DNA from: Alphaproteobacteria bacterium
GTDB taxonomy: Bacteria; Pseudomonadota; Alphaproteobacteria; JAEULF01
DNA length: 41,987 bases
Assembly: GCA_016793965.1 (NCBI GenBank)
Contig: JAEULF010000187.1
Location: 1-41,987 of the forward strand
Reading direction: 5' to 3'
Position numbers and translations under genes: made by a program. Positions 84 through 39,807 of the stretch are shown in pieces. The notes below the pieces were generated by a model that saw only the letters and a list, made by a program, of their open reading frames with translations, searched no databases and was not told where the DNA came from. How positions within the stretch are numbered: position 1 is the first letter of the stretch; each line of letters opens with the position of its first letter.

Positions 84-88
84 TGCGC
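84..88. repeat. Target-site duplication, left copy (TGCGC)
   Basis: The pentanucleotide TGCGC lies immediately outside the left terminus. It is identical to 39803-39807, just outside the right terminus. A 5-bp duplication is the Tn7-family hallmark. Confidence 0.85.
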
Positions 89-115
89 TGTCATTTCCAC
101 GAATAGATGAGAGTG
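89..115 (+). repeat. Left terminal inverted repeat, including the outermost putative TnsB site
   Basis: TGTCATTTCCACGAATAGATGAGAGTG compares with the reverse complement of 39776-39802, TGTCATTTCCACGAATAAATGAGAGTG. There is one mismatch. Confidence 0.9.
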
Positions 116-174
116 GGTCACGGCGGAATTCCGCCAGTCAACCCAGCAGCGGCACCCATTTTCCGATGCGACCG

Positions 175-197
175 ACACATTGAATGGTGAGAGTGGG
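175..197 (+). repeat. Putative internal TnsB-binding site L2
   Basis: ACACATTGAATGGTGAGAGTGGG shares the ACAT-N(8-9)-TGAGAGTG(G/C) pattern with the other end-proximal sites. Confidence 0.55.
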
Positions 198-206
198 TTG
201 CAATCC

Positions 207-229
207 GACATCAAACAGTGAGAGTGGCC
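207..229 (+). repeat. Putative internal TnsB-binding site L3
   Basis: GACATCAAACAGTGAGAGTGGCC has the same pattern and orientation as L1 and L2. Confidence 0.55.
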
Positions 230-249
230 ACGCTCATACCTTTTCTATT

Positions 250-764
250 TCAACAGGATAGCAGATCAAGCGTCGGCGTTTTTGAGCACTGCGCTTTCGG
301 GTGTCGGAAATCGAAATGGAATCGCGCCCCCCCGATCAGCTTGATCCGGTCGACAGCGGCCTGGAGGCTCCTGCCGCCCACCACGGCCGGGACCCGCTCC
401 ATCTGTACATCCATCGCCTCCTCAACTCCATTTGCGCCGCCGACCCAATGGCAGCTTACCGTGATCAACAGACCCACCGAACGACGCGCTTCATCGCCCA
501 CCCGCGCCCATCCTCCACGACGGCCGACCTGACTCCTCAGCCAGGGCACTCGATCCTCAAGCACCGACCCGCAGGCATCGACCTCCAGGCATCGATCGCC
601 AGCGCGTCGATCCTGTCGTACTCCGCGTGCGTGCTGACGTGCGCGACCGGCATGCGCTGTGCCGCGAAATCGACCTCTGTGATGAGGTGGACCCGCCTAC
701 CCTGCTCGAACTTGACGCACCCGCGGCCGAGCCCCGGAGGTCCTGAAGTGGTATTGCTGATCTA
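250..764 (-). pseudogene. Decayed ORF downstream of the XRE gene, interrupted by a 14-bp tandem duplication (product unknown)
   Basis: Two minus-strand frames have coding-like codon structure (G-rich first position, G/C-rich third position). They join into one stop-free frame if one copy of the imperfect tandem repeat at 568-581 / 582-595 is removed. There is no canonical start codon near the 5' end. Confidence 0.3.
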
Positions 765-769
765 ATGCG

Positions 770-1102
770 TCACAGCCCAGCCGGCGTCTTAGGGATTCGC
801 ACGCGCTTGGGCAGGCGCTGGACGTCAAGGAGCAAGCCCTGGTCGTCGCGGCTCTGGTCTAGAATCTCGCCCAGCACGTTGCCGAAACCAAGAACGAAGA
901 AGGTCATGGCGTATGCGCCCATCGCCACGGTCGGACTGCCCTTCTCGATTCGCAGGTAGGTGCTTTTCGCGACACCAAGCCGCTCGGCCATCATCTTCAC
1001 TGTCAGGCTGCGCTTCTTGCGGGCAATGGCAATATCCGCGCCGAGCTTGGACAAGGAGCGCTTCACCTTGTTTGGCAGGATATCTTCGACAGCGGATCGC
1101 AT
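770..1102 (-). CDS. XRE/Cro-family helix-turn-helix transcriptional regulator (HipB-like antitoxin architecture)
   Basis: 110-aa ORF with a typical HTH segment, LTVKMMAERLGVAKSTYLRIEKG. Confidence 0.8.
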   Translation of the reverse strand: MRSAVEDILPNKVKRSLSKLGADIAIARKKRSLTVKMMAERLGVAKSTYLRIEKGSPTVAMGAYAMTFFVLGFGNVLGEILDQSRDDQGLLLDVQRLPKRVRIPKTPAGL

Positions 1103-4180: not shown

Positions 4181-6436
4181 TCACTCCAGATCGACGGCCC
4201 GCAGGCGCAGCGCGTTGCCAATGACGCTGACTGAGCTCAGAGCCATGGCTGCGGCGGCGATGATCGGCGACAGCAAAAGGCCGAAGATCGGGTAGAGCGC
4301 GCCGGCAGCGATCGGAACGCCGGCGGCGTTGTAGATGAAGGCGAAGAACAGATTCTGCCTGATGTTGCGCATCGTCGCGCGGCTGAGCTGGCGGGCGCGC
4401 ACGATCCCCAACAGGTCGCCCTTGACCAAGGTCACGCCGGCGCTCTCCATCGCCACGTCCGTACCAGTCCCCATGGCGATGCCGACATCGGCGGCTGCGA
4501 GCGCCGGAGCGTCATTCACCCCGTCGCCGGCCATGGCGACGATCCGACCTTCGGCCCGCAGCCGCACCACCGCCCGGCTCTTGTCCTCCGGCAGCACCTC
4601 CGCTTCAAAAGCGTCCAAGCCGAGCTTGGCCGCGACGGCAGCGGCCGTTACGCGGTTGTCGCCGGTCAGCATGACGACGCGCACGCCGGCCGCGCGCAAC
4701 GCTGTCATGGCGGCAGGCGTCGATGGCTTGACCGGGTCGGCGATGCCGATCGAGAGCGCGGGCCGGCCGTCGACGCCGACAAAGATTGCGGTCGCGCCGT
4801 CCTGCCGCACGCGATCAGCGGCCGCGTCGAGCGGCGCCGTGTCGATACCTTGCTCCTTCAGGAAGCGGCTCGATCCGATCGCGACCGCGCGCCCGTCAAC
4901 CCGGCCGGTCACGCCCTTGCCGGTCGTCGACGCAAAGCCGACCGGCTCGCCGAGCGCGAGGCCGCGCGCGCTCGCGGCGCGCACGACGGCCTGCGCCAGC
5001 GGATGCTCGCTGGGCCGGTCGAGGCTGGCGGCGAGCCGCAGCGCCTCGTCCTCGGCGAAACCCGGCCCGGCCGACTGCGAGACCACCTCGGGCTTGCCGG
5101 CGGTGAGGGTACCGGTCTTGTCGACCACCAGCGTATCGACCCGCTCCATCCGCTCCAGCGCCTCCGCGTCGCGGATCAGGACGCCGGACCGGGCGCCCCG
5201 CCCGACGCCGACCATGATCGACATCGGCGTCGCGAGGCCGAGCGCGCAGGGACAGGCGATGATCAGGACCGACACGGCGGCGACGAGTCCGTAGGTCAGC
5301 GCCGGCTCCGGGCCGAACGCGCCCCAGGCGACGAAGGCCAGCGCCGCCACGGCGACGACGGTCGGCACGAACCAGCCGGACACGACGTCCGCCAGGCGCT
5401 GGATCGGCGCTCGGCTGCGCTGCGCCGCAGCGACCAGCTGGACGATCCGCGCCAGCATGGTGTCGCGGCCGACGCGCTCGGCCGTCATGACGAGCGCGCC
5501 CGTCTGGTTGAGCGTGCCGCCGATCAGCTTCTGCCCGGTTTCCTTCGTCACCGGCATCGACTCGCCTGTCACCATCGATTCGTCGAGGGTGCTGCGGCCC
5601 TCGCGGACGATGCCATCGACCGGCACCGACTCGCCCGGCCGCACGCGAAGCCGGTCGCCCACCGCGATCCGGTCGAGCGGCACCTCCTCCTCCCCGCCGT
5701 CCGCCAGGAGGCGGCGTGCCTGCTTGGGCGAGAGGTCGAGCAGCGCCCGGATGGCGCCGCTGGTGCTCTCGCGCGCCCTGAGCTCCAGCACCTGGCCCAG
5801 CAGCACGAGCACCGTGATCACCGCCGCCGCCTCGAAGTAGATGGCAACCATGCCCGAAGGGGCGTGGAACGCCGGCGGAAATGCGCCAGGGGCCGCAGTC
5901 GCCGCCAGGCTGTAGGCCCAGGCAACGCCCGTGCCCATGGCGATCAGCGTGAACATGTTGAGGTTGCGCGTGCGCACCGAGTGGAAGGCCCGCTCGAAGA
6001 ACGGCCAGCCAGCCCAGAGCACGACCGGGGTCGCGAGGACGAGCTGGATCCATGCCGACCACGCGGCTGGAACGAGGCGATGCAGGCCGGTGAGATGGCC
6101 GCCCATCTCCAAGGCCGCGATGGGCAGGGTCAGGCCGAGGGCGATCCAGAAGCGGCGGGACATGTCGGCCAGCTCCGGATTGGGCCCTGCGCCAGCCGCC
6201 ACGATTTCCGGCTCAAGCGCCATGCCGCAGACCGGGCACGAGCCCGGCCCGTCGCGGACGATTTCCGGGTGCATGGGACAAGTCCAGCGCGCGCCGACAG
6301 GCACGGCGGCCAGGTCGATCGGCAGTCGCGCCGCACCATGGCCATGGTCGTGGCCAGCACCGTGCGCGCGGCCACCGGAGATGGAGGGTCCGTGCTCGCC
6401 ATGGCAGCAATCGTGCGTCTGCTCTTGCGCGGTCAT
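4181..6436 (-). CDS. copA: Cu(I)/Ag(I)-translocating P1B-1-type ATPase
   Basis: 751 aa. His-rich N-terminus; CPMHPE...CPVCGM metal-binding module; TGES; CPC-x6-P ([11 protein letters not shown]); DKTGT; YN-x4-P (IYNAAGVP); M-x2-SS (MALSS); GDGVNDAP. Confidence 0.95.
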
Positions 6437-10824: not shown

Positions 10825-12180
10825 CTATCCGCGCGCATGCCGCCGCGGCAGCGTGACGATTGCTTGCAGGCCGCCGTCGTCTCGATTCCGGAGCGTGACG
10901 TCGCCGCCATGGTTGCGCAGGATCGTCCGCGCGACCGTCAGGCCAAGCCCGGTCCCGGCTGGATGGCTGCCGCGCGATTCGTCCAGCCGATAGAAGGGCT
11001 GGAACACCGCTTCCAGCTTGTCTTCGGGAATGCCCGGTCCTTCGTCGTCGATCAGTATGCGCACCTGATCGCCCTGCTCGTCGAGCCGAACGCGCACGGT
11101 GCGTCCGTACCGAACGGCGTTGTCCATGAGGTTCGAGAGGGCGCGCTTTAGCGCAAGATGCCGTCCCAAAGCCGGCTCGACGGGCGCGATATCGAGGGAG
11201 ACGGCATGCCCGGCATCGACATGATCGGACTCGAGCGTCTCCAGGATCGCAGCCATGTCGACCAGCCTCTCCGGCTCGGAGTCCATCCCTTCGCGCAGGT
11301 AGCCGAGAGTCCCGTCGATCATCGCCTGCATCTCGTCCAGGTCGACGGTGATCATGCGCCGGAGCTCGTCGCTCTCGCACAGCTCGGCTCGGAAGCGGAG
11401 CCGGTTGATCGGCGTCTTGAGATCGTGGGAGATCGCCGCCAGCGTCTCCGTGCGGTCCTTGACGAGCTTCCTCACCCGCTCCTGCATCTCGTTGAACGCC
11501 CGCGCGGCGTCGCGGATCTCGACCGGGCCGTCCTCCGACAGGGCCGGGCTTTCGACATTCGATCCGAGTCGTCTAGCGGCCTGCGCAAGCTGAGCGAGCG
11601 GCGCAGTGATCAAGCGCACGAGGATGAGCGCCACGACGAGTATGCCGACGGCCATGGCCGTGGCGGAAGCGAACATGCCATGGTCCTGGACCGATCCCGG
11701 TCCCACCAGCGCCGCGCTGAAGTTGACCCAGCTGCCGTCCTCGATCTGGATCGATGCCAGGAGCAGATGCGGCGAAGTCGGCGACGCGGAACCGTCGACG
11801 CCGGGCTCGTCCGCAAAGCCGAGCCTCAAGCGGCCGCGATCCACGAGGTCCAGAGCCAGCTCGCGGATCCGCGCGCGCATCTTTTCGGCCTCGTCGCCCT
11901 CGCGGCCGCTCCGCTGCACCAGGCTGTGCGGGCTCCAATGCGCCTCGACGCTCGCGCTCGACAGGGCATGCGCGATCTTGTCGCGATCGGCTACCTGCCT
12001 CTCGCCAACCGCCCTGGCGATGGACACCAGCCGCTCGGCAAGCTGGGCCTCGCGCGTGCTGCCTATCAGCCTGCCGACGCCGACCTCGTAGATCCAGATG
12101 CTGCACAGGTGCATCAGGCTGAGACCGAGGAGCAGGATCCAGATCGTGCGCCCGGCGAGCGTCCGCGGCAGTAGCTTCAT
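10825..12180 (-). CDS. Two-component sensor histidine kinase (HAMP-HisKA-HATPase)
   Basis: 451 aa. Two TM segments, H-box AAISHDLKTPINRL, N-box LSNLMDNAVRY, G-boxes DDEGPGIP and GTGLGLTV. Confidence 0.9.
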   Translation of the reverse strand: MKLLPRTLAGRTIWILLLGLSLMHLCSIWIYEVGVGRLIGSTREAQLAERLVSIARAVGERQVADRDKIAHALSSASVEAHWSPHSLVQRSGREGDEAEKMRARIRELALDLVDRGRLRLGFADEPGVDGSASPTSPHLLLASIQIEDGSWVNFSAALVGPGSVQDHGMFASATAMAVGILVVALILVRLITAPLAQLAQAARRLGSNVESPALSEDGPVEIRDAARAFNEMQERVRKLVKDRTETLAAISHDLKTPINRLRFRAELCESDELRRMITVDLDEMQAMIDGTLGYLREGMDSEPERLVDMAAILETLESDHVDAGHAVSLDIAPVEPALGRHLALKRALSNLMDNAVRYGRTVRVRLDEQGDQVRILIDDEGPGIPEDKLEAVFQPFYRLDESRGSHPAGTGLGLTVARTILRNHGGDVTLRNRDDGGLQAIVTLPRRHARG

Positions 12181-12959
12181 GTCAGGCGCGCGACGCTCGG
12201 AACGAAGACGTAGCCGGCTCCCCGCACCGTTTTGATCAGCGCGCCGGCATCCCGGTGATGGCTCATCTTCCGCCTGAGCCTACTGACATGCACGTCGATG
12301 CTGCGATCGAGAGCCGAGGCCGTGCGATTGCGAGCAAGATCGAGCAGCTGGTCGCGCGACAAGACCCTTTGGGGGTGCTCGACGAACGCCAGGAGAAGCT
12401 CGAATTCCGCCCCGCTCAGGTCGATGATCACGCCGTCCGGCGACGTCAGCTCCCGTCGCCGCGTGTCCAATCTCCACCCGGCGAACCCGACGACGGACGT
12501 CGACTTGGGCAGCGCCTGCTGCGGCGCCGTCGCCGCGCGCCTGAGCACGGCACGGATGCGCGCGAGCAGCTCTCGCGGGCTGATGGGCTTGGCGAGGTAG
12601 TCGTCGGCGCCGATCTCCAGCCCGACGACCCGATCGGCTTCCTCGCCCTTGGCGGTCACCATGATGATCGGCACCGTCGACTTGCTGCGGACGTCGCGGC
12701 AGATGTCCAGCCCAGAGCGGCCAGGCAACATGATGTCGAGAATGATCAGGTCCACGGTGGAGCGCTCGAGCGTCTCCTGCAGTTCGCGGTACGTCGGCGC
12801 CCCGGTGACGCGATAGCCGTTCTGGCGCAGGAATTTCACGACCAACTGCTGCGTCTCGGAGTCGTCGTCGACCACGACGATATGCGCTTCCGGGTCGAGC
12901 GTCGGAATCGGTCCGCCACGTCCGTCCGTCGTCTCCGGTTCGTCGCTCACGACTGCCAT
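12177..12959 (-). CDS. OmpR/PhoB-family response regulator
   Basis: Internal ATG at 12959 gives 260 aa. Receiver domain (VVVDDD...ILDIMLPG...KP) plus winged-helix output (IDVHVSRLRRK...TVRGAGY). Its stop overlaps the kinase start. Confidence 0.9.
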   Translation of the reverse strand: MAVVSDEPETTDGRGGPIPTLDPEAHIVVVDDDSETQQLVVKFLRQNGYRVTGAPTYRELQETLERSTVDLIILDIMLPGRSGLDICRDVRSKSTVPIIMVTAKGEEADRVVGLEIGADDYLAKPISPRELLARIRAVLRRAATAPQQALPKSTSVVGFAGWRLDTRRRELTSPDGVIIDLSGAEFELLLAFVEHPQRVLSRDQLLDLARNRTASALDRSIDVHVSRLRRKMSHHRDAGALIKTVRGAGYVFVPSVARLT

Positions 12960-13133
12960 CGCCTTCGGCCTGACGTTCCAGAACACTCGATCAATGCCAG
13001 CGCTCCGCCGGCGCAATCTCGGCGTCGCGAGCGACTGCCGCATTCGACGACGGCATGACGTCCCTACTGAACATCCGGCGCGCCGCTGCACGCCAGCTGA
13101 GTCCAGTCAGCGGATTCCCGTGGCGACGCTGGA

Positions 13134-13463
13134 CTAGTTCGCCGGCTCGAACTTCCGCACGACGTACTGACCGTCGATCCGCTCCGGCTGGAAGCGGATC
13201 TTCTGGCCGACCTGCATGCGATCGAGCATAGCAGGCTCGGCCGCCCGGAAGACCATGGTCATCGCCGGCATGTCCAGTTGCGGGATCGGCGCATGCCGCA
13301 ACGTGACCTTGCCTTGATCCTTGTCGATCCGTCGCACCTCGGCGTCGACCATGGCTCCCGCCGGCTGCGCCGGTGGCGCCGCCGTCTGGGCCGAGCTGCG
13401 ATCGGCTACCAGCACGAGACCCGCCAGCACGATTCCGGCCGCAGCAAGCGCTCTGATCTTCAT
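13134..13463 (-). CDS. cusF: CusF-like periplasmic Cu(I)/Ag(I)-binding protein
   Basis: Internal ATG at 13463 gives 109 aa. Signal peptide, then the conserved core GKVTLRHAPIPQLDMPAMTMVF. Confidence 0.8.
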   Translation of the reverse strand: MKIRALAAAGIVLAGLVLVADRSSAQTAAPPAQPAGAMVDAEVRRIDKDQGKVTLRHAPIPQLDMPAMTMVFRAAEPAMLDRMQVGQKIRFQPERIDGQYVVRKFEPAN

Positions 13464-13491
13464 GTTGATGCCTCCCTGATCGGCGCCCGGA

Positions 13492-27851: not shown

Positions 27852-30800
27852 CTATCCGCCTCGCGGGCTTGCCAGCCGCGCATGCGACCGAGCCAGCTCC
27901 GCACCCTTGACCAGAGCGTAGATCGCCGGGATCACCGCAAGCGTCAGCAGGGTCGAGCTGACCATGCCGCCGATCATCGGCACGGCGATGCGCTGCATCA
28001 CCTCGGAGCCCGTGCCGGTGCTCCAGAGGATGGGCAGCAAGCCGGCCATGATGGCGGTGACCGTCATCATCTTCGGCCGCACGCGCTCGACCGCTCCCTC
28101 CATGATCGCGGCGTCGAGGTCGGCCTGGCCGGGCGCGTGGCCAGCCGCGGCGCAGCGCACCTGCGCGTCGCGCCAGGCGTGGTCGAGATAGACCAGCATG
28201 ACGACGCCGGTCTCGGCGGCGACGCCGGCCAGCGCGATGAAGCCGACTGCAACCGCCACGCTCATGTTGAACCCCAGCCAATCCATCAGCCAGAGGCCGC
28301 CGACCAAGGCGAAGGGCAGCGACAGCATGACGATCAGTGTCTCCGGCAAGCGGCGGAAATTGAGGTAGAGCAGCACGAGGACGATCAGCAGCGTGACGGG
28401 CACGACGACGGCGAGCCTCGCTTTGGCGCGCTCCAGGGATTCGAATTGCCCGGACCACTCGACATAGGTGCCGGACGGGAGCGCGACCTGCGCCGCGACG
28501 GCGCGCCGCGCCTCCTCGACGTAGCCGCCGAGGTCGCGGCCGCGCAAATCGACGAATATGTAGACGGCGAGCCGGGCGTTCTCCGTCCGGATCGTGGCCG
28601 GCCCCTGAGCCAGCCGCACGGACGCGAGCTGGCCCAGCGGGATCATGGCGCCGCCGGGCGCGTCGACGAGCACCTGCGTGGCGATCGCCTGCGGATCGGA
28701 GCGCAGGTCGCGCGGGTAGCGGACGTTGACCGTGAAGCGCTCGCGTCCTTCGACTGTGGTGGTGACGGCCTCGCCGCCGATGGCGCCGCGCACCGCCTCC
28801 TGGAAAGCCTCGATCGTGACGCCGAGGCGCGCCAAGGCCGGGCGATCCGGCTCGATGTCCAAGTAGTAGCCGCCGATCACGCGCTCGGCGAATGCGCTGG
28901 ATGTGCCTGGGACGGTCCGGACCGCGGCCTCCACTGCACGCGCCAGGCGCTCCATTTCCGCCAGGTCGCGGCCGTACAGCTTGATGCCGACCGGCGTGCG
29001 GATGCCGGTCGCCAGCATGTCGGTGCGCGCCTTGATCGGCATGGTCCAGGCGTTGCTGACGCCGGGAAGTCGCAGCGCAGCGTCCATCTCGCCGATCAGC
29101 GTGTCGATGGTCATGCCCCGGCGCCACTCGCCCGCAGGCTTCAGGTTGATTACGGTCTCGAACATCTCCGTCGGCGCGGGATCGGTCGCCGTGGCGGCGC
29201 GTCCGGCCTTGCCGTAGACCGAGGCGACTTCCGGGAACGACTTGATGATCTTGCCTTGAGTCTGCAGGAGCTCCGCCGCCTTGGTGACCGACAGCCCAGG
29301 CAGCGTCACTGGCATGTAGAGCAGGGTTCCCTCGTTCAGAGTCGGCATGAACTCCGTCCCGAGGCGCTGAAGCGGGACGAGCGCGCCCGCCAGCACTGCG
29401 ACCGCCAGGAGGATCGTCGCGATCTTGGCGCGCAGCACGAGAGTGATGACCGGGCGGTAGAGCCAGATGAGCGCACGGTTCAAGGGATTGCGCCGCTCCG
29501 GCAGGATGCGTCCGCGCACGAGCAGCAGCATGAGCACCGGCACGAGCGTGACCGAGAGCAGCGCGGCGCCTGCCATGGCGAAGCTCTTGGTGAAGGCCAG
29601 CGGCTTGAACATCCGGCCTTCCTGCGACTCCAGGGCGAAGATCGGCAGGAACGATACCGTGATGATCAGCAGGCTGAAGAACAGCGCCGGACCGACCTCG
29701 CAGGCCGCCTTGACCAGGACCTTGGCCCGCGGCTCGCCCGGCGCCGCGCGCTCCAGCCGCTTGTGCGCGTTCTCGACCATGACGATCGCGGCGTCGACCA
29801 TGGCGCCCATGGCGATGGCGATGCCGCCGAGGCTCATGATGTTGGACGACATGCCGAGCGCGTCCATCAGCAGGATCGCGCCGAGGACGCCCACCGGCAG
29901 CATCAGGATCGCAACCAGCGCGCTGCGCAGGTGAAGCAGGAAGACGACGCAGACGAGCGCCACGACCAGGCTCTCTTCGACCAGCGTCGCCGCCAGCGTG
30001 GCGACGGCGCGGCCGATCAGCTCCGACCGGTCGTAGACCGCCTCGATCGCGACGCCCTCGGGCAGGCTCGAGGCGATCTCCGCCAGGCGCGCGCGCGCGC
30101 CCTTGATGACATCGAGCGCGTTCTGTCCGAAGCGCTGCAGGACGATGCCGCCGGCCGCCTCGCCCTCGCCGTTCAGCTCAGCGATGCCGCGCCGCTCGTC
30201 CGGCCCGACCTCGACCCGCGCCACGTCGCGCAGCAGCACCGGCGCGCCGCGCTCCGCCTTGAGCACAATCTGCTCGATGTCGGCGATGCCGCGCAGATAG
30301 CCGCGGCCGCGCACGACGAACTCGGTCTCCGCCAGCTCGACGACACGCCCGCCGACGTCCGTGTTGCTAGCACGGATCGCCTGCGTCACGCGGCCGAACG
30401 GGATGCCGTAGGCCTGCAGCCGGCGCGGATCGACCACCACCTGGTACTGCTTGACGAAGCCGCCGATGCTGGCGACCTCGGCGACGCCCTCGGACTTGGC
30501 CAGCGCATAGCGGACGTGCCAATCCTGGATCGTGCGCAGCTCCGCCAGCGACCGCTGCGCGCCGGTCACGACGTACTGGTACACCCAGCCGACGCCGGTG
30601 GCGTCGGGGCCGAGCGCCGGCACGGCCCCCGCCGGCAAGCGGCGCGCGGCGACGTTCAGGTACTCCAGCACGCGCGAGCGCGCCCAGTAGATGTCGGTGC
30701 CGTCGGCGAAGATGACGTAGACGAAGCTGACGCCGAAGAATGAGAAGCCGCGCACGACCTTCGACTTCGGCACGGAGAGCAAGGCCGTCGCCAGCGGGTA

Positions 30801-30998
30801 GGTGACTTGGTCCTCGACCACCTGCGGCGCCTGGCCCGGGAACTCCGTGTAGACGATCACCTGGACGTCGGAGAGGTCGGGGATGGCGTCGAGCGGTATG
30901 CGGGTCACGGCGAGAGCGCCGGCACCGACGACGAAGGCGGTCGCCAGCAGGACGAGGAAGCGGTTGGCAGCCGACCAGCGGATCAGGGCGGCGATCAT
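27852..30998 (-). CDS. cusA: CusA/CzcA-family heavy-metal efflux RND transporter
   Basis: 1048 aa with 12-TM RND architecture and an HME-RND type N-terminus (MIAALIRWSAANRFLVLLATAFV...). Its start overlaps the adaptor gene stop. Confidence 0.93.
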   Translation of the reverse strand: MIAALIRWSAANRFLVLLATAFVVGAGALAVTRIPLDAIPDLSDVQVIVYTEFPGQAPQVVEDQVTYPLATALLSVPKSKVVRGFSFFGVSFVYVIFADGTDIYWARSRVLEYLNVAARRLPAGAVPALGPDATGVGWVYQYVVTGAQRSLAELRTIQDWHVRYALAKSEGVAEVASIGGFVKQYQVVVDPRRLQAYGIPFGRVTQAIRASNTDVGGRVVELAETEFVVRGRGYLRGIADIEQIVLKAERGAPVLLRDVARVEVGPDERRGIAELNGEGEAAGGIVLQRFGQNALDVIKGARARLAEIASSLPEGVAIEAVYDRSELIGRAVATLAATLVEESLVVALVCVVFLLHLRSALVAILMLPVGVLGAILLMDALGMSSNIMSLGGIAIAMGAMVDAAIVMVENAHKRLERAAPGEPRAKVLVKAACEVGPALFFSLLIITVSFLPIFALESQEGRMFKPLAFTKSFAMAGAALLSVTLVPVLMLLLVRGRILPERRNPLNRALIWLYRPVITLVLRAKIATILLAVAVLAGALVPLQRLGTEFMPTLNEGTLLYMPVTLPGLSVTKAAELLQTQGKIIKSFPEVASVYGKAGRAATATDPAPTEMFETVINLKPAGEWRRGMTIDTLIGEMDAALRLPGVSNAWTMPIKARTDMLATGIRTPVGIKLYGRDLAEMERLARAVEAAVRTVPGTSSAFAERVIGGYYLDIEPDRPALARLGVTIEAFQEAVRGAIGGEAVTTTVEGRERFTVNVRYPRDLRSDPQAIATQVLVDAPGGAMIPLGQLASVRLAQGPATIRTENARLAVYIFVDLRGRDLGGYVEEARRAVAAQVALPSGTYVEWSGQFESLERAKARLAVVVPVTLLIVLVLLYLNFRRLPETLIVMLSLPFALVGGLWLMDWLGFNMSVAVAVGFIALAGVAAETGVVMLVYLDHAWRDAQVRCAAAGHAPGQADLDAAIMEGAVERVRPKMMTVTAIMAGLLPILWSTGTGSEVMQRIAVPMIGGMVSSTLLTLAVIPAIYALVKGAELARSHARLASPRGG

Positions 30999-32458
30999 GG
31001 GCGCCGCTCCGCTCGCGCTGGGTCGTGCCCGGCCTTGTCCTGCGGCGCGCCGGCGACGAAGCTGCCGAGCGCTGCTTTCAGGTTGCTCTCGGCGTCGATA
31101 AGGAAGGTGGCGCTGACGACGACGCTCTCGCCCTCGGCGACGCCGTCCAGGATCTCGACATGCTCGGCCGAACGCGCGCCGAGCGCGACCGCACGCGGCT
31201 CGAAGCGTCCCTCGCCGCGCTCGACCAGGACGGCCTGGCGCGTGCCGCTGTCGAGCACGGCCGACACCGGCACGGTCACGCCGCCCTTGCCGACAGGCGC
31301 GGACAGGGCGACGGTCGCGAACATGTCGAGCTTCAGCTGGCCTTCAGGATTCGCGACCTCGATGCGCAGCCGCCCGGTGCGCGTGGCCGGGTCGATGTCG
31401 GGATAGACGAAGCCGACGCGCCCGTCGAAAGTCCGGCCCGGATAGGCGGCGACCTGCACCTGCGCGCTTTGGCCCGCGGCCACGATGCCTAGGTCCTGCT
31501 CGAAGACGTCGGCGACGACCCAGACATGAGCGAGGTCGACGATGCGATAGAGCGGTTCGCCCGGGGCAAAGCGCATGCCGAGCACCGCCATCTTCTCGAT
31601 CACCGTGCCCTCGCGCAGCGCCCGCAACACGACGACGCCGGCCGCCGCGTCGTCGCGCAGCACCTCGCGCGCCTGCTCGTCCGAAAGGCCGAGCAACTTG
31701 AGGCGCGCGATCGCGCTGGCGGCGGCGCCGGGCGTCTGCGCGGCGGCGCCGCTGCGGCTGGCGAGGCCGAGTTGGGCGAGCGCCCTGGTCACGTCCGGGC
31801 TGTAGACCTCCATCAGGGTCTCGCCGCGCCGGACCGCCTGCCCGGTCGTGCCGACCGCCAGGCGCTCGATCCAGCCCTCGAAGCGCGTGGTGACGACCAG
31901 CTCGCGGCGCTCGTCGATCCGCACTGTCCCTGTCGCCCGGATCGTCCGCGCGAGCGCGCGCCGCGCCGCCGTCTCGGTGCGCACGCCCAGGCGCTGCACC
32001 TTGTCCAAGCTGACCCTGACCTCCCCGGCGCCCTCCGGCTCGTCGCCTTCGTACACGGCGATATAGTCCATCCCCATCCAGTCCTTCTTCGGGACCGGTG
32101 ACGTGTCCGGCAGGCCCATCGGGTTGCGGTAGTAGAGGATGCGACGCTGCCCGGCCCCGCTTCCTGATGCCGCTGCCTGGCGCGTCTTTGCGTCGGCGGC
32201 ACCCGTGCTCGCCTCTTCGCTCTCGTGGACCGGAATGTAAGGACGACCATCCTCCGCACGCGCTGGATCGGCGGCGTAGAGAGGCAAGCCGTCGGGATGC
32301 CGGTAGTAGATGATCGGCCCAGCGGGCACCGCCGCAGGCGCGGAGGGCCCCATGGTCGCGCGCGGCGGTTGGCCAGCGCCGGAGCGTCCGAGGAGATAGC
32401 CTCCGCCGGCAGCGGCCAGCAACGCGGCCGGGACCAGCCACCAGGCCAGCCGGCTCAT
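30995..32458 (-). CDS. cusB: CusB-like periplasmic adaptor (membrane fusion protein)
   Basis: Internal ATG at 32458 (MSRLAWWLVPAALL). N-terminal metal-binding-type motifs YYRHPDGLP and YYRNPMGLPDTSPVPKKDWMGMDY. HlyD/beta-barrel segments follow. Confidence 0.88.
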   Translation of the reverse strand: MSRLAWWLVPAALLAAAGGGYLLGRSGAGQPPRATMGPSAPAAVPAGPIIYYRHPDGLPLYAADPARAEDGRPYIPVHESEEASTGAADAKTRQAAASGSGAGQRRILYYRNPMGLPDTSPVPKKDWMGMDYIAVYEGDEPEGAGEVRVSLDKVQRLGVRTETAARRALARTIRATGTVRIDERRELVVTTRFEGWIERLAVGTTGQAVRRGETLMEVYSPDVTRALAQLGLASRSGAAAQTPGAAASAIARLKLLGLSDEQAREVLRDDAAAGVVVLRALREGTVIEKMAVLGMRFAPGEPLYRIVDLAHVWVVADVFEQDLGIVAAGQSAQVQVAAYPGRTFDGRVGFVYPDIDPATRTGRLRIEVANPEGQLKLDMFATVALSAPVGKGGVTVPVSAVLDSGTRQAVLVERGEGRFEPRAVALGARSAEHVEILDGVAEGESVVVSATFLIDAESNLKAALGSFVAGAPQDKAGHDPARAERRP

Positions 32459-32862
32459 TGCTGGCCCCTGAAGACGATCTCGCTCCGGACCGTCCCGGTC
32501 TCGCCTTGCACCTTGGCGCCGAGCGAAAGCCGCCATTTGCCGTCCATCGTCAGCTTGGCCTTGAAGCGGTAGGTGCCAGGCTCGCTCGACGGGAGCTGCT
32601 CCACCGGCACCGTCATGGCCGCCATGTCGTCCGGCGCCATGTCCAGGCGCCTGGCGAAGATCACGGCGTCGGGCACAGGCGAGCCATCTGCCTTGCGCAC
32701 GAGTTGCACGACCAGGACGATGCCGCCGCCGGCTGGGCTTTCGCTGCCGACCAGCTTGAACTCGAAGTCCTTGATGTCAGCGCCGGCCGGTCGAAGGCAT
32801 GTCGCGGACAGCAAGATGACGAAGGCCGCACCGATGGCGGCCGCGAACTTGTTCACCGACAT
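32455..32862 (-). CDS. FixH/YtkA-like periplasmic protein
   Basis: 135 aa. Signal anchor, then a beta-rich domain ending in GTYRFKAKLTMDGKWRLSLGAKVQGE. Its stop overlaps the cusB start. Confidence 0.6.
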   Translation of the reverse strand: MSVNKFAAAIGAAFVILLSATCLRPAGADIKDFEFKLVGSESPAGGGIVLVVQLVRKADGSPVPDAVIFARRLDMAPDDMAAMTVPVEQLPSSEPGTYRFKAKLTMDGKWRLSLGAKVQGETGTVRSEIVFRGQQ

Positions 32863-34233: not shown

Positions 34234-35148
34234 CTATCCGATTCCAGCACGACGTCGGCTCGGTGGCGTCCATGGAACATACCTCGCGTACTCTTCGCTG
34301 AGCTTGGCGACCCCCTCGATGCGGGCGCGATACGCGATCGCGCGCAGGCGCTTGACCACTTCGCCGGTCAGCCCTTCCGTCTCGGCATGCAGCCGCTGGA
34401 TGAAGTTCGGACTCTCGAAGAGCTCGCTGTCCTCCGGGAACCACGTCATCCAGACGCACCCGGCGAACCGAGCGAAGCTCTCGTTCGGCTCCCAGAGCGG
34501 CATCTCGAGGACGTCGAAGCGGTTGCCGAGCTGTTGGTCGGTCTGGAGGGCCCGCGTCGCCTCGCGCAGGCCGAAGACGACGACCGGTATCTGGGTCTCG
34601 TTGATCAGGTCCTTGAGGACTCCGAGGAAAGCGGTCTGAGCGCCGGCCGAGCCGGTCAGCATTTGGTGGAACTCGTCGATCAGGATGAGCCTGGTGCCGG
34701 TTCGGCGGAGGAGGTGCACGAGCTGGTTCTGGAGCGCGGTTGCGTCACGCGAGCTCACCGGCTGCGCACCAAGCTCCTCGATCATTCGGAGCAGCATCAG
34801 CCGGCGATCCGAGCCCGGAGGAGCGAAGAACCTGATGACCGGTATGACCGCCATCTCGCCGTCGCCTGGGCCGACGCTCGCTTCCTGCACGGCCTTGAAG
34901 CGCATAGCGATCTGCGTCTTGCCGTGGTTGGTCGGCGCCTCGATCATGAGGCAGGCAGGCCGGGAGACGATCGGGCTGTTCGCCAGCCGTCGCATGCGTG
35001 CAAAGGCTCGCTCCGCGGCGCTGTACGGCACCCAGAACTCCGCATCGATCGATGGATCGAAGATGCCTGCGCCCGGCGTCAGCGGCAGCTCCAGAGACGG
35101 AGGTGGCATCGTGGTTGATTGCTTGGCCGCCCTGATGCGATCAGCCAT
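34234..35148 (-). CDS. tnsC: TnsC/TniB-like AAA+ ATPase (short form)
   Basis: Internal ATG at 35148 shares one base with the tnsB stop (TGATG) and gives 304 aa. Walker A-like EAPTNHGKT and Walker B LILIDEFH. Confidence 0.85.
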   Translation of the reverse strand: MADRIRAAKQSTTMPPPSLELPLTPGAGIFDPSIDAEFWVPYSAAERAFARMRRLANSPIVSRPACLMIEAPTNHGKTQIAMRFKAVQEASVGPGDGEMAVIPVIRFFAPPGSDRRLMLLRMIEELGAQPVSSRDATALQNQLVHLLRRTGTRLILIDEFHQMLTGSAGAQTAFLGVLKDLINETQIPVVVFGLREATRALQTDQQLGNRFDVLEMPLWEPNESFARFAGCVWMTWFPEDSELFESPNFIQRLHAETEGLTGEVVKRLRAIAYRARIEGVAKLSEEYARYVPWTPPSRRRAGIG

Positions 35149-36968
35149 CACCACACCTCCGGCTTGACGGGTGCTTTGAAGTCGATCTTCCACCGCTTCT
35201 CGGTCGCCGGGTCGCTCGGCGCGGCAGTCGCGCCAGCGGCAGGCTTGAACGGAACGACGTTCTCGGCGCCGGCAGGTGCGGCCAAGCCGGCGTCATGCTC
35301 GTCGGGCGGTCGTGCGACAGCGGCGGCCAGGCGCTCTTTGTGATCGCGACGGCGTTCCTGCTCGCGCCTGGCCTTGCGCGTGTGCTGGCGCGCCTGCTCG
35401 ACGGTGGCCAGCATCCGCTCGCGCGCCATCAGGATCTGCTCGCCGGTATCGTCCGGCAGCTTGTGCTCCTTCGCGAAACGCTGGGCAGCCTTCCATTCCC
35501 ACAGGCTGATCGACGGCCGGCCCAGATGAACCCAGTCGACGTCGAGATAGGTGCCCATCTTGTTGTCGAGGAAGTAGATCCGGCTGATGTCTCGGGGATC
35601 GCGCCGCACCGTGAATTGCTCGGTTCTCCGGCCCTTCTTGGCGCCGATCAACGGCCGCAGCGCGTGCGCGTGGTAGCGGATCTTGTCCCACTCGACCCCG
35701 TGCCGCTGCACCGAGCGCTTGGCGAGAGGCAGGAAGGTGATCCGCAAATGACGTTCGTCGAACGCTGCCCGCGTGGCGCCGGTGCCAAGCTTGCCGTCGC
35801 CCCCTTCGATCCCCTTCGTCCAGCGCGCGAGCGGGCTCGTGCCGATTCCGTTATGCAGGCGACGGTGGTAGACGTTGACCACCCACTCCGTGAAGTAGCG
35901 CTCGAGTTCGCGCAAGGTCATGCATGCCGTCGCATCGGGATCGTTCTCTCCGCGCTCGGCGACATTGGAAAACGTGGCCCCCGGGATCTCCCGCAAGCAT
36001 CCGTTGATCGTGCCGATGAGCCGCTCGATGTGCCCGCCGTACTTGGGAGCCTTGACGGGCCGGTAGTCGAGCTCGATGCCGAACTCGACGCAGGCGTCCT
36101 GCAGCGCCATTCCGTGGAACTCGCGGGCATTGTCGCAGTGGATCACCGCCGGGAGGCCCGACACCGGCCATTCGCCCTCGACGCCGACTCGCAGCAGCCA
36201 GGGACCCTTCGGCAGGAACGCCTGCTGCAGGCAGAGCCCGACGGTCAACGCGCTCGGATCGTCGAGCGATATGCAATAGCCGGCGATGACGCGGCTGTAG
36301 ACGTCGATCGCAACGGTGAGCGACGGCCGGCCGATCGGCTTGCGGTCCTGCTCGGAGACAAGAATGACGTCGAGCTTGGTGTGGTCGATCTGCACGAGGT
36401 CGAAGGGATGATCGGCGCCGGGAATCGAGCCGATGACCGGTTCGTGCTTGTCGCTCGCTGCCTTCGCGCCGTGCCGACGCCTGACGAGCATCTCGCGGTC
36501 GACCGCCCGGATGCGGTTGCGGATGGTGTTGGCGTGCGGCTTAGGCAGGTGGGCCTTGCGGCAGTAGCGGTAGACCTCTTCGATCGTCCGTGCCTTCTTG
36601 GGCCGCGCCTTGGTCAGGTGGAAGCTCTCGATGACGATCTTGATCGCGGCCTCGACGCGCGGATCGAGGCGCGCTCCGGCCTTGCGACCGCGCGGCTTCG
36701 GGGCGAGGGCGACCCGGCTTCCACCGCCGCGGAGGCGCCCCAGCCAGCGATAGATGGTCGCGACGGAGACCCCGTGTTGGCGCGCGGTCGCTGAGGCCAC
36801 GGCCTGCGTGACCTTGGGGAGCTTCATGAGCGGCGCGATCGCCGCCAAGCGCCGTTCGGCGGCGGCGCGCGCACGCGGCGAGAACGCCTCGAACGGCCGC
36901 TTGCCCGTCTTGTCGGCGGCCTGCGCCGGCGCCAACGCCGGTCTTGCTTGACGTCGCCTAGATCCCAT
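35148..36968 (-). CDS. tnsB: TnsB-type DDE (retroviral-integrase fold) transposase
   Basis: 606 aa. N-terminal HTH (VSVATIYRWL). DDE triad contexts VQIDHTKLDV, IHCDNAREFH and GHIERLIGT. SD GGAGAA upstream. Confidence 0.92.
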   Translation of the reverse strand: MGSRRRQARPALAPAQAADKTGKRPFEAFSPRARAAAERRLAAIAPLMKLPKVTQAVASATARQHGVSVATIYRWLGRLRGGGSRVALAPKPRGRKAGARLDPRVEAAIKIVIESFHLTKARPKKARTIEEVYRYCRKAHLPKPHANTIRNRIRAVDREMLVRRRHGAKAASDKHEPVIGSIPGADHPFDLVQIDHTKLDVILVSEQDRKPIGRPSLTVAIDVYSRVIAGYCISLDDPSALTVGLCLQQAFLPKGPWLLRVGVEGEWPVSGLPAVIHCDNAREFHGMALQDACVEFGIELDYRPVKAPKYGGHIERLIGTINGCLREIPGATFSNVAERGENDPDATACMTLRELERYFTEWVVNVYHRRLHNGIGTSPLARWTKGIEGGDGKLGTGATRAAFDERHLRITFLPLAKRSVQRHGVEWDKIRYHAHALRPLIGAKKGRRTEQFTVRRDPRDISRIYFLDNKMGTYLDVDWVHLGRPSISLWEWKAAQRFAKEHKLPDDTGEQILMARERMLATVEQARQHTRKARREQERRRDHKERLAAAVARPPDEHDAGLAAPAGAENVVPFKPAAGATAAPSDPATEKRWKIDFKAPVKPEVW

Positions 36969-37620
36969 GGGGAGTTCTCCCGGTTCGCAACGAGATGAGC
37001 GCGTCCGGCGTCAATGGCTGGTCGAGATCGGCAGCCAAGAGCCCCCGCGCGAGCGCGGTCCAGAGGTCCGGCGTTGCCGCCAACCGATCCGACGTATCGG
37101 GCCAGGCCGCGCGCAGCAGATCGTCCACCGCCATGCCAGGTGCCGGCTGCGCCAGCGCCAGGATCCGCGCCGCACGCCCAGGATCGAGCTGGCGCCAGCG
37201 GAAGCGGTGCAGCCAGCGCGCGTTCTCCAAGCGCGGTGTGCGGATCTCGCGGCAGGAAACGACCCGGAAGATCGCGCCGATTGAGCGTGCGTGATCTTGC
37301 GCCGCGGCAATCGCCGCCGCTCTCTCCCGGCACCATTTGGCAAGGCGTGCCTCGGGCTTGACCTCGACGAGCTCGGGGGATCGGTCCCCGGCCACCCACG
37401 TGGTCAGGAAGTCCGGCACGTAGCTCCTGCGGCGGCCCCCATCGTCATGCCATTCAATCCGGCAGGGCTGCGCCTCGATCGAACGCAGCATCGGATCGAG
37501 CAGGGTCAGGAGGACGAAGTCGCGCTCGAGAGTGGATTCGACGGCGATCGCCGTGCCTGGACGGACGACAATGCGGGCGGACACGGATCCGCGAGATGGC
37601 GTGACGCGCCGCACACTCAT
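36958..37620 (-). CDS. tnsA: TnsA-type endonuclease (restriction-enzyme fold)
   Basis: 220 aa. Catalytic E/D/K context ESTLERDF...YVPDFL...LVEVKP. Overlaps tniQ upstream and tnsB downstream. Confidence 0.85.
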   Translation of the reverse strand: MSVRRVTPSRGSVSARIVVRPGTAIAVESTLERDFVLLTLLDPMLRSIEAQPCRIEWHDDGGRRRSYVPDFLTTWVAGDRSPELVEVKPEARLAKWCRERAAAIAAAQDHARSIGAIFRVVSCREIRTPRLENARWLHRFRWRQLDPGRAARILALAQPAPGMAVDDLLRAAWPDTSDRLAATPDLWTALARGLLAADLDQPLTPDALISLRTGRTPHGI

Positions 37621-38996
37621 GTATGCCTACGACTCCTGTCTGTGATCGTTTCTTGTTCTCCAGTACCGTTAATGACACTTTTTGGCGAAATCGTGGCATC
37701 GAGCAGGGCGGACCTGAGCGCGCGGTCGACCCAGACGCCCAGGTTCATCCCAGCCCGATGCGCAGCGGTGCGGGCGGCGGCGCGCACCTCCGGCGCGACC
37801 CCCTGGAGCTTCCAATGCCGGTGGGTTCCCCAAGCGATCGCAGTCCGCGCCGGTGCCGTCAGGTGTCCCCGACCGTCCAGGCTGCGACCGACGAGTGTGC
37901 GGAGAGCCGCGAGCGTGGGGCGGATGCCGGCGGCTTCCAAATGCGCTCGTGCCGCGACGACCTCGCCGTCGTCGGTCACCGTCTCCGCGTCGAACAGGTT
38001 CCATCGGATCGCGTGGTGCAGGGCATAGGGCAGGCGCCGGCCGTGCTTGTCGATCAGGCCGGCATGGACACCGACCTGCCTGCAGGCGCCGACGAACCGC
38101 CTCGGCCAATCGGTCATCATCCAGCTCGCAAGCTCCAGCAGCGACGCGCGCCCCGACGGCTCCAGCGCCCTGAAGTCGCGGATCGGCGGCAGGCGATCGA
38201 TGGCGTGCGTCGCGCATTGCGCGACATCTGCCAGATGGGTGCGGAGCGGGCGCGCTTGCGGCCCGACGCAGAACAGGCGGACCAGCCGCTCGAGGATCTC
38301 GAACCAGGCGAGCGACAGGATCGGTCCGTGGCCATCGAGCATCGACCAGAGGTCGCTCGCGTTGCAGAGCATCCGCGACTGCAGTTCGATGACCTGGCGC
38401 GATGCGCGCTCCGGACGGACCGAGCGCAAGTCGTCGCCGCAACGGGCGCAGTCGACGAACAAGCGCTTCGTCCCCCGTCGCATCGGAAGGAGCTGGAACC
38501 CGCAGCTCGGGCAGCGGTTGATCAGGTGGACCGCGTGGTCCGCACATGCCGTCACGAAACTGAGCCGCCAGGAGAGTCGAAGATGCGGTGTGCGATCCTC
38601 ATCGAGGCAATGCCGGCAGACCTGCTGACCGAAGCCGCCCTCGGAGTTGGATGCGGCTCCGGACGGCGGAAGCCAACCAAGCTTTGTGCGGCCGTCATCC
38701 CTCTCGAAGACCGTGCCCGCCCACCGGGCGAAGGTCGCGTTGCGCAGGTCCGGCGCTGCTCGCCCGGTCTTGGCCGCGAGGCGCTCGATCAGCGCTCCCG
38801 GCGCTGCGCGGTCGAGGTCGTAGAGGCCAAGGTGATGCCTCGGGAACAGCGCCCGCATTAGCTCCTGCGGCAAGAGGCCGTTCATCTCGGCGACACGCGC
38901 GAACCAGGAACTGAAGCTCTCGTCTTGCTGCAGCATCGGGCGGCCAGGCCAGAGGCGCTCCGGTTGGTGCTCCGCGCGCAATCCGGGTACTCTCAT
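37617..38996 (-). CDS. tniQ: TniQ/TnsD-family target-selection protein with a C-terminal ribbon-helix-helix-like tail
   Basis: Internal ATG at 38996 (MRVPGLRAE...). TniQ N-terminal signature PGRPMLQQDESFSSWFARVAEMNGL. Zinc-finger-like CRHC...C..H....CPSCG. The first 89 codons of ORF 37617..39263 run through the divergent promoter and are not credible. Confidence 0.85.
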   Translation of the reverse strand: MRVPGLRAEHQPERLWPGRPMLQQDESFSSWFARVAEMNGLLPQELMRALFPRHHLGLYDLDRAAPGALIERLAAKTGRAAPDLRNATFARWAGTVFERDDGRTKLGWLPPSGAASNSEGGFGQQVCRHCLDEDRTPHLRLSWRLSFVTACADHAVHLINRCPSCGFQLLPMRRGTKRLFVDCARCGDDLRSVRPERASRQVIELQSRMLCNASDLWSMLDGHGPILSLAWFEILERLVRLFCVGPQARPLRTHLADVAQCATHAIDRLPPIRDFRALEPSGRASLLELASWMMTDWPRRFVGACRQVGVHAGLIDKHGRRLPYALHHAIRWNLFDAETVTDDGEVVAARAHLEAAGIRPTLAALRTLVGRSLDGRGHLTAPARTAIAWGTHRHWKLQGVAPEVRAAARTAAHRAGMNLGVWVDRALRSALLDATISPKSVINGTGEQETITDRSRRHT

Positions 38997-39054
38997 GGGG
39001 ATGTATACACATAAAACCGGCAAGATTGCCGGCGCGGCATATGTGCAGCAGTCC

Positions 39055-39294
39055 ATGAAGAGATCCCTAACGCCCGATGTCTGCCGCGCAGCCCGCAGCC
39101 TCCTCGGCTGGTCGCGGGAGACGCTGGCCGAGAGATCCAGCGTCGCCGAACGCACGATCATCGACTTCGAGCGGGAGGCCCGGCGACCGCTGCCGCGCAC
39201 GCTCAGGGATCTGGAAGAAGCGATCGCGGCCGCAGGCGTCGATCTGATCGTCGACGGAGGCAAGACAGTGGGCTTGCGCTGGCGGCCAGGTTGA
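39055..39294 (+). CDS. Small HTH (XRE/Cro-like) regulator divergent from the tniQ-tnsABC operon
   Basis: From the internal ATG at 39055 it is 79 aa. The HTH segment is CRAARSLLGWSRETLAERSSVAERTIIDFERE. An earlier start at 38995 is possible. Confidence 0.65.
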   Translation: MKRSLTPDVCRAARSLLGWSRETLAERSSVAERTIIDFEREARRPLPRTLRDLEEAIAAAGVDLIVDGGKTVGLRWRPG

Positions 39295-39590
39295 AGCGCG
39301 CGAGCTCAATGGCGCGACGAACTGCCAAGACAGCGACGCGCTTGACCAGTCCACGCGGATGCACGCAACTGCTGCACGAACGCCCGCGGAGAGGGCTGGG
39401 TGCAGGTAGCGCCCGCGCTCCGCACCTGACCGTCCTGCGAGCAATCGATCCTCGAAGGGCGATCTTCGAAACCGAGCGCGTACGGCTCGAGGCGACGGCG
39501 ACTGGACGCACGCGTTCTGCGATCTCGTGGCAGCCGTCACATTGCCGCCAGCGTCGGGCTGATCATCAGCGAACGACCGACCGATGTCCT

Positions 39591-39613
39591 CACATCAAAA
39601 TCTGAGAGTCGCG
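39591..39613 (+). repeat. Extra TnsB-site-like sequence in left-end orientation inside the right end
   Basis: CACATCAAAATCTGAGAGTCGCG closely resembles site L3 (GACATCAAACAGTGAGAGTGGCC). It points outward, opposite to sites R1 and R2. Confidence 0.4.
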
Positions 39614-39752
39614 CAACCGGCTGATTCAGCGCCAGCATCTGCGGTTCGGGCGGTGCAATCTGCTCGCAGCAATTGATGGCAAGTGACTCATCTGCAATCG
39701 GAATTCGTCGCGACTCGGAGGACCGCCGAGTCGGCCCTTGAGAATCCTGGGC

Positions 39753-39775
39753 CCGCACTCTCAATCTGAGATGTG
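39753..39775 (-). repeat. Putative TnsB-binding site R2
   Basis: The reverse complement CACATCTCAGATTGAGAGTGCGG fits the shared pattern and directly abuts the terminal site. Confidence 0.55.
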
Positions 39776-39802
39776 CACTCTCATTTATTCGTGGAAATGA
39801 CA
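39776..39802 (-). repeat. Right terminal inverted repeat, including the outermost putative TnsB site
   Basis: The reverse complement TGTCATTTCCACGAATAAATGAGAGTG matches 89-115 at 26/27 positions. Confidence 0.9.
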
Positions 39803-39807
39803 TGCGC
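39803..39807. repeat. Target-site duplication, right copy (TGCGC)
   Basis: Identical pentanucleotide to 84-88, immediately outside the right terminus. Confidence 0.85.

Follow-up and report, generated by a model that had tools for sequence, protein, structure and literature searches.

Element boundaries and terminal repeats

The window, i.e. the whole 41,987 nt stretch analysed here (contig JAEULF010000187.1, assembly GCA_016793965.1, Alphaproteobacteria), encodes a set of copper and other metal resistance genes, the transposition genes tniQ, tnsA, tnsB and tnsC and an intact tRNA-Gln gene. We suggest that the resistance genes and the transposition genes belong to one Tn7-like transposon of 39,714 bp, spanning positions 89-39802. 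The features at and around its ends are as follows.

84-88, no strand: left copy of the target-site duplication, TGCGC, identical to 39803-39807
89-115, plus strand: tns-distal terminus, of the Tn7 'left end' type, starting with 5'-TGT and holding the 20-mer L1 at 96-115; 28.5 bits with a weight matrix
176-195, plus strand: 20-mer L2, CACATTGAATGGTGAGAGTG, putative TnsB-binding site; octamer count and matrix
207-226, plus strand: 20-mer L3, GACATCAAACAGTGAGAGTG, putative TnsB-binding site; octamer count and matrix
39591-39610, plus strand: sixth 20-mer, CACATCAAAATCTGAGAGTC, inverted relative to R1 and R2; matrix, 20.4 bits
39756-39775, minus strand: 20-mer R2, abutting R1; octamer count and matrix
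39776-39802, minus strand: tns-proximal terminus, of the Tn7 'right end' type, ending ...ACA-3' on the plus strand and holding the 20-mer R1; inverted repeat and matrix
39803-39807, no strand: right copy of the target-site duplication, TGCGC; read from the sequence
39837-39910, minus strand: tRNA-Gln(CTG), intact, inferred attachment site; ARAGORN, and Rfam at 63.7 bits

Read directly from the sequence, the tns-distal terminus at 89-115 is TGTCATTTCCACGAATAGATGAGAGTG. The reverse complement of 39776-39802 is TGTCATTTCCACGAATAAATGAGAGTG, which is identical to the former at 26 of 27 positions and shares its TGT...ACA ends. The pentanucleotide TGCGC abuts each terminus on the outside, giving a perfect 5-bp duplication. 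Both the termini and the duplication had been claimed in an earlier, purely sequence-based reading of the window, hereafter the original prediction, and both are confirmed. A search for further copies of the 27-nt terminus, which the original prediction had proposed, gave exactly two copies in the window when up to three mismatches were allowed, and none in 100 dinucleotide-preserving shuffles.

The octamer TGAGAGTG is present in five copies in 42 kb, all of them at most 140 nt from a terminus and all pointing inward. The expected number is 1.04, and none of the shuffles reached five. These octamers are the 3' portions of 20-mer repeats. A weight matrix was made from the five end 20-mers and then run over the whole window. 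It recovered 96-115, 176-195 and 207-226, which are spaced and located at the tns-distal end, and 39756-39775 and 39776-39795, which abut each other at the tns-proximal end. The repeats are probably TnsB-binding sites. Three spaced sites at one end and abutting sites at the tns end correspond to the left and right end layout of Tn7. The only additional match of the matrix in the window is the sixth 20-mer, located approximately 190 nt inside the right end and oriented opposite to R1 and R2. A role in regulation, or a remnant, are candidate explanations for it.

The transposition operon

In brief, tniQ, tnsA, tnsB and tnsC follow each other in this order inward from the right end, all on the minus strand and all identified by Pfam. 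The claim that TnsA, TnsB, TnsC-like and TniQ genes lie just inside one end thus holds, the end being the right-hand terminus and the genes occupying 34234-38996. Two small regulator-like genes are listed with them.

34234-35193, minus strand: tnsC, TniB-type AAA+ regulator, likely start codon at 35148; Pfam TniB, E 2.2e-46
35148-36968, minus strand: tnsB, DDE transposase; Pfam Mu-transpos_C, 6.3e-13, with weaker rve and helix-turn-helix matches
36958-37620, minus strand: tnsA, endonuclease subunit; Pfam Tn7_TnsA-like_N, E 5.2e-11, above cut-off
37617-38996, minus strand: tniQ, TnsD-like target selector of approximately 459 amino acids (aa); Pfam TniQ, E 3.4e-25
38995-39294, plus strand: small XRE-type helix-turn-helix gene between the right end and tniQ; HTH_3, E 7.4e-6
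770-1102, minus strand: small XRE-type helix-turn-helix gene near the left end, cargo or regulator; Pfam HTH_3, E 5.5e-7

Adjacent frames overlap by a few bases, and the four genes therefore make up one coupled operon. The open reading frame of tniQ (37617-39263) has 548 codons, but the gene itself has approximately 459. Homologues begin approximately 90 codons into the long frame, and the likely start was placed at 38996, giving 459 aa, because of the conserved N-terminus LWPGRP...ESFSSWF.

The catalytic motifs of the transposase are in place. In TnsB, the motifs IDHT, CDNAREF and HIER, which carry the DDE residues, align with those of solved TnsB structures. The best match in the Protein Data Bank is TnsB of Tn6677 (4.3e-44); TnsB of Tn7 scores 4.7e-17. 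The rve match scores 28.5 bits, under the Pfam cut-off of 32.6 bits, and the helix-turn-helix match is also under its cut-off. In TnsA, STLE, VPDF and EVKP follow each other as expected and probably correspond to E63, D114 and K132 of Tn7 TnsA. TnsC has 319 aa with a Walker A motif (GKT) and a Walker B motif (LIDE), and its nearest solved structure is VchTnsC of Tn6677 (4.5e-14).

The helix-turn-helix gene at 38995-39294 is transcribed away from tniQ and may encode an element-borne regulator of the transposition operon. An HTH_3 gene (4550-4867) is also located directly upstream of tniQ in one related locus, L097.

A tRNA-Gln gene at the tns-proximal end

Tn7 inserts some tens of bp past the 3' end of its conserved target gene and does not disrupt that gene. 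In the window, the gene in the corresponding position is tRNA-Gln(CTG). Its 3' CCA faces the right terminus across a gap of 34 nt, made up of 29 nt and the 5-bp duplication. The original prediction did not make use of this tRNA, and its location next to the tns-proximal end is independent support for the interpretation. Rfam found only the tRNA and no other RNA feature in the window. The last 25 nt of the tRNA gene do not recur elsewhere in the window, with up to three mismatches allowed.

Related elements

Relatives of the TniQ are few. They share 36-43% identity with it and come mainly from Azospirillum, Rhodocista, Magnetospirillum and other Rhodospirillales. The C-terminal half of the protein matches only approximately 100 cluster representatives among 1.84 billion proteins. 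The first relative loci to be inspected have the same gene order, tniQ-tnsA-tnsB-tnsC (cut short behind tnsA in those of Azospirillum rugosum), and an upstream tRNA gene in the same orientation, for Phe, Gln(TTG) or Ser(CGA). Altogether, 17 of 27 loci have a tRNA gene (Gln-TTG, Gln-CTG, Phe, Ser or Met) located upstream of tniQ on the same strand. A TGTC terminus with repeated 20-mers behind it is found 27-39 nt past the CCA in 15 of these loci. Insertion in one orientation and at a fixed distance from a conserved site is thus found both in the window and in its relatives.

A complete counterpart to the window element is found on a 2-Mb replicon of Azospirillum brasilense. It is 13.5 kb long and has the pentanucleotide ACTTC duplicated at both ends. 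Its right end starts 35 nt past a tRNA-Gln(TTG), with the duplication located 30 nt past the tRNA, and its repeats are spaced at the left end and abutting at the right end. By our own count its two ends match each other at approximately 17 of 28 positions. Independent insertions such as these support the boundaries of the window element far better than the 5-nt match alone does.

In a neighbour-joining tree of TniQ, the elements at tRNA-Phe, tRNA-Gln-ctg and tRNA-Ser cluster, and those at tRNA-Gln-ttg are scattered. The TniQ of the window branches deeply by itself and does not fall in the Gln-ctg clade, despite its Gln-ctg site. In this tree, TniQ subclades follow tRNA identity in part.

Some of the relatives differ in detail. 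In locus L099 a right end (approximately 4570-4608) is located behind a 3' fragment of tRNA-Gln(CTG) that ARAGORN did not call, making this an eighteenth locus with at least part of a tRNA gene; the fragment suggests a rearranged or duplicated attachment site. The tns operon of Azospirillum rugosum (L003, L004) is broken after tnsA by an IS66-family element encoding TnpA, TnpB and a DDE transposase, and this copy is therefore probably dead. In six loci (L097, L098, L104, L107, L108 and L110), 1.5-3.6 kb of extra genes separate tniQ from the right end. In L097 and L108, the two of these that were scanned, they encode a radical SAM protein, an alpha/beta hydrolase, a peptidoglycan-binding protein and a helix-turn-helix protein. 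The tns operon can thus have cargo on both sides. Tandem elements were considered for the relatives in which the tRNA is 1.5-3.6 kb from tniQ, and were rejected, as no internal ends were found and the gap is filled by the extra genes.

The target selector TniQ

The TniQ protein has three parts: a zinc-binding TniQ core, a variable helical middle and a tail that is probably a ribbon-helix-helix domain. The Cys and His zinc ligands are invariant in the family. An AlphaFold model built with 33 sequences has a mean predicted local distance difference test score of 83.5 and a predicted template modelling score of 0.71. Its best matches among solved structures are the Tn7 TnsD-TnsC-DNA complex (8v32) and the TniQ proteins of CRISPR-associated transposons (CASTs).

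The last approximately 45 structured residues are the most conserved stretch of the C-terminal part (RYWKLDGVSPEVKAAAR.AAHR.GE.VG.WLD) and are among the best conserved in TniQ as a whole. They correspond to residues approximately 373-415 of a 439-aa form of the protein, encoded at approximately 37690-37820 on the minus strand, and are predicted to fold into two helices preceded by an extended segment. When this fragment was modelled, the fold matches were nearly all to ribbon-helix-helix proteins, namely Rv0298, MazE-mt10, TacA2, VapB, Arc, AmrZ and a CopG-like protein, with root mean square deviations of 0.6-1.7 A over 31-41 residues and Foldseek E-values of at least 1. Weak Pfam matches for the tail also fall in the ribbon-helix-helix class (E 0.16-0.004). 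As both the sequence and the fold evidence are below threshold, we name the tail only a probable ribbon-helix-helix DNA-binding domain. Free-standing proteins of 70-150 aa elsewhere match it at 45-56% identity. The term ribbon-helix-helix is absent from the main survey of Tn7 target selectors, and we found no earlier description of such a tail on a selector of this kind.

The middle part may be involved in the choice of tRNA. Some TniQ pairs are approximately 70% identical yet located at different tRNAs, as is the case for L002 (Gln-TTG) compared to L103 and L093 (Ser-CGA and Ser-GGA). In such Gln versus Ser pairs the identity falls to 37-43% at aligned positions approximately 270-360. We speculate that this rapidly changing segment is a candidate for tRNA specificity. 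More tentatively still, the nearly invariant tail could dock on a feature common to all tRNA genes, e.g. the T-loop box with its palindromic TTCGAA core, while the helical segment at approximately 270-360 picks the individual tRNA. We regard this two-part arrangement as possible, though rather doubtful. If true, it would account for 70% identical proteins at tRNA-Gln and tRNA-Ser, and the selector would be a protein guide with a natural capacity for re-targeting.

Proposed mechanism of insertion

All testable defining features of a Tn7-like element are present at 89-39802. In brief, there is a TnsB transposase with DDE motifs, a TnsA with E, D and K motifs, a TnsC of the TniB type with Walker motifs, a selector of the TniQ/TnsD family, and TGT...ACA termini with several inward repeats that are arranged differently at the two ends. 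The original prediction of a Tn7-like transposon is therefore supported by the termini, the duplication, the asymmetric 20-mer arrays and the four genes with their intact catalytic motifs. Taking everything together, we consider it very likely that 89-39802 is a single, intact cut-and-paste transposon of the Tn7 family that moves as outlined below.

By analogy with the studied Tn7 and tRNA-targeting TnsD systems, the 459-aa, TnsD-like TniQ would recognize a tRNA gene, in the window tRNA-Gln(CTG), by its 3' part and, once bound, recruit the AAA+ protein TnsC. TnsC would then activate the TnsA and TnsB transposase sitting on the repeated 20-mers of both ends. TnsA and TnsB would cut both strands and join the element approximately 29-34 bp past the CCA of the tRNA, in one orientation and with the right end nearest. 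Such an insertion would leave the tRNA intact and duplicate 5 bp, here TGCGC. The binding of TniQ to the tRNA gene, the order of assembly and the continued activity of the element are all modelled on those systems. The intact structure suggests that the element may be mobile today. Mobility is deduced from structure because no empty site was found among the collections searched, and no close relative reached the site.

Several observations weigh against this interpretation. An exact 24-mer spanning the junction of the reconstructed empty site gave no match in representative genomes, and neither did the 27-nt terminus. The TniQ is just 36-41% identical to its nearest relatives, and its target is therefore deduced from position alone. 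TnsA has no sequence match among solved structures and scores 86.5 bits on the NCBIfam model TnsA_like, below the cut-off of 110; on these two grounds we regard it as divergent. The extra 20-mer at 39591-39610 is inverted, and the right end has only two clear 20-mers, compared to three in the relatives.

Alternative explanations

The alternative that survives best is that the structure is Tn7-like but has become an immobile fossil, fixed at its site, with decay that is hidden from inspection of the sequence. The element is present as a single copy, the TniQ cluster has one member on one contig, the right end shows two clear 20-mers and one inverted one, and no empty site was found in representative genomes. 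A 20-mer across the junction did give eight matches in metagenomes, but these are only 20-25 nt long, located in unrelated contexts and without a nearby tRNA, and were rejected as chance matches to a GC-rich word. We also looked for synteny via a PdxA-like gene that flanks the element. The best representative genomes were 69% identical in this gene and had neither a neighbouring tRNA-Gln nor a match to the left flank. A 99% identical PdxA was found in run SRR17347209, on a 1,681-bp contig that ends 14 bp after the gene, short of the site. Exact look-ups of the PdxA and TnsB of the window itself gave no match. On the other side, the four tns frames are intact and overlapping and have kept their catalytic motifs, and the termini match at 26 of 27 positions next to a perfect duplication. 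Both observations argue for a recent insertion, and we hold a fossil to be improbable, although it is the only alternative to which we give real weight.

It is also conceivable that the two termini stem from two adjacent elements, or that the TGCGC match is coincidental, in which case 89-39802 would not be one unit. Tn7-like elements are known to insert in tandem at a shared attachment site, and a 5-nt match would arise by chance with a frequency of approximately 0.002, by our own estimate from the composition of the window (approximately 66% G+C). There is, however, one set of tns genes, and no terminus-like site is found internally with the exception of the 20-mer 190 nt from the right end. 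The 26 of 27 match of the termini also exceeds what the A. brasilense relative shows for its own ends (approximately 17 of 28). We therefore find two elements, or a coincidental match, very hard to credit.

Two further alternatives are fainter still. A classical tRNA-linked island moved by a tyrosine integrase, with the tns genes as passengers, would agree with the adjoining tRNA gene, as is the case for many integrase-driven islands, but the usual form of such an island is ruled out because no scanned frame has an integrase domain and the 3' 25-mer of the tRNA occurs once in the window (up to three mismatches), without a repeat at the far boundary; moreover, the element starts 34 nt beyond the tRNA and has inverted TGT/ACA ends and a 5-bp duplication. 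An element of the Tn5053/Tn402 family, with TniA, TniB, TniQ, a resolvase and res sites, is brought to mind by the Pfam TniB match of TnsC and by a selector annotated only as TniQ, but is just as implausible, as the tnsA gene with its E, D and K motifs is present and translationally coupled to tnsB, no resolvase is encoded in the scanned frames, and the target is a tRNA gene and not a res site. The element thus belongs neither to the integrase-type islands nor to the Tn5053/Tn402 family, and a single Tn7-family transposon next to tRNA-Gln(CTG) remains our interpretation.

Cargo genes and flanking regions

Approximately 34 kb of copper and silver resistance genes and Zn/Cd-type resistance genes are located between the ends, and we infer that they move as cargo. 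The metal-resistance cargo of the original prediction is supported by Pfam and NCBIfam assignments. The main cargo genes are listed below.

4181-6436, minus strand: CopA-type copper-exporting P-type ATPase; Pfam E1-E2_ATPase and HMBD, TIGR01511 at 587.9 bits (cut-off 397)
10825-12180, minus strand: histidine kinase of a two-component system; domain scan
12177-13091, minus strand: OmpR-type response regulator of a two-component system; domain scan
13134-16831, minus strand: CusF-like protein, cupredoxin, multicopper oxidase and outer-membrane efflux protein; domain scan
18190-20123, plus strand: DctQ and DctM of a tripartite ATP-independent periplasmic (TRAP) transporter, inside the element
20274-26034, plus strand: ZntA-like heavy-metal P-type ATPase, signal peptidase II, DsbA-like thioredoxin, SCO1/SenC and a second multicopper oxidase
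27852-30998, minus strand: CusA/CzcA-family resistance-nodulation-division pump; NCBIfam TIGR00914 at 1196 bits (cut-off 701)
30995-32536, minus strand: CusB-type membrane-fusion protein; domain scan

Pfam and NCBIfam scans also identified a YtkA-like protein, an ArsR-type regulator, a DUF411 protein and an LTXXQ protein. No second transposase was seen in the scanned cargo frames.

On the right-hand flank, 41272-41987 on the plus strand encodes a TRAP transporter gene, identified by eye as DctP, which is perhaps unrelated to the DctQ and DctM genes of the element. The left flank consists of 88 bp up to the end of the contig, too short a stretch to be followed in other genomes, and its bases resemble the final 16 codons of a convergently transcribed gene (...LVEASPQWLIDVATRY*).

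Comparison with known Tn7-like elements

Tn7 itself, which uses TnsABC together with TnsD to insert at attTn7 downstream of glmS, shares with the window element the TnsA and TnsB transposase, the AAA+ protein TnsC, a selector with a TniQ domain, the TGT/ACA ends and the 5-bp duplication. The asymmetric arrays of sites are also alike, with abutting sites at the tns-proximal end, and in both cases this is the end that faces the target gene. In contrast to Tn7, the window element has neither TnsE nor a second selector, tniQ is the first gene of the operon and not located after tnsC, TnsC is short (319 aa) and TniB-like, and the target is a tRNA gene instead of glmS. Its TnsB is also far closer to that of Tn6677 than to that of Tn7.

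Tn6677, a type I-F3 CAST of the branch with short TnsC, provides the nearest solved homologues of both TnsB and TnsC. Unlike Tn6677, the window element has no Cascade genes or CRISPR array and has a larger TniQ with a putative DNA-binding tail of its own. Its target would be chosen by a protein and not by an RNA.

For cyanobacterial TnsD proteins that target tRNA genes, insertion distances of 29 +/- 1 bp and of 30-33 nt downstream of the tRNA have been measured (PMC9881144, PMC10293859). The distances found here, 29-34 nt in the window and 27-39 nt in the relatives, agree with those of the cyanobacterial tRNA-targeting elements (PmcCAST of type I-B2, McCAST and CyCAST of type I-D, and relatives without CRISPR). 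In the cyanobacterial elements TnsA and TnsB are fused, and a CRISPR module and/or another TniQ is usually present (PMC9881144). The window element differs in having separate frames for TnsA (36958-37620) and TnsB (35148-36968), a single TniQ and no CRISPR, and in the ribbon-helix-helix-like tail of the selector and the Rhodospirillales hosts. It does not have the fusion of the TnsAB clade but shares the insertion approximately 30 bp past the tRNA, with a selector whose role is presumably the same. By analogy, the element would work like the cyanobacterial tRNA-targeting TnsD elements, but it falls outside that clade and is not one of them.

Heavy-metal detoxification genes are an abundant cargo of Tn7-like elements, and insertion at 'safe sites' downstream of tRNA genes has been described (PMC8649781). 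The targeting of tRNA genes by a protein and the metal cargo were thus already known for Tn7-like elements. We found no paper linking such elements to these alphaproteobacterial hosts. Pseudomonas syringae reportedly has a large Tn7-like element for copper hyperresistance. The two elements are alike in being large and in having copper cargo, but the host, the core-gene lineage and the attachment site differ.

What had the appearance of a chromosomal copper and metal resistance island becomes, with this interpretation, one mobile unit with boundaries known to the base pair and a predictable landing site. This helps to follow the spread of metal resistance among soil and water alphaproteobacteria. 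The element also provides a minimal parts list for a transposition assay, namely a pair of short ends, four genes and a single tRNA target. The family as a whole represents a compact, CRISPR-free form of tRNA gene targeting outside the cyanobacteria, and its selector may be useful for studying how protein-guided targeting changes.

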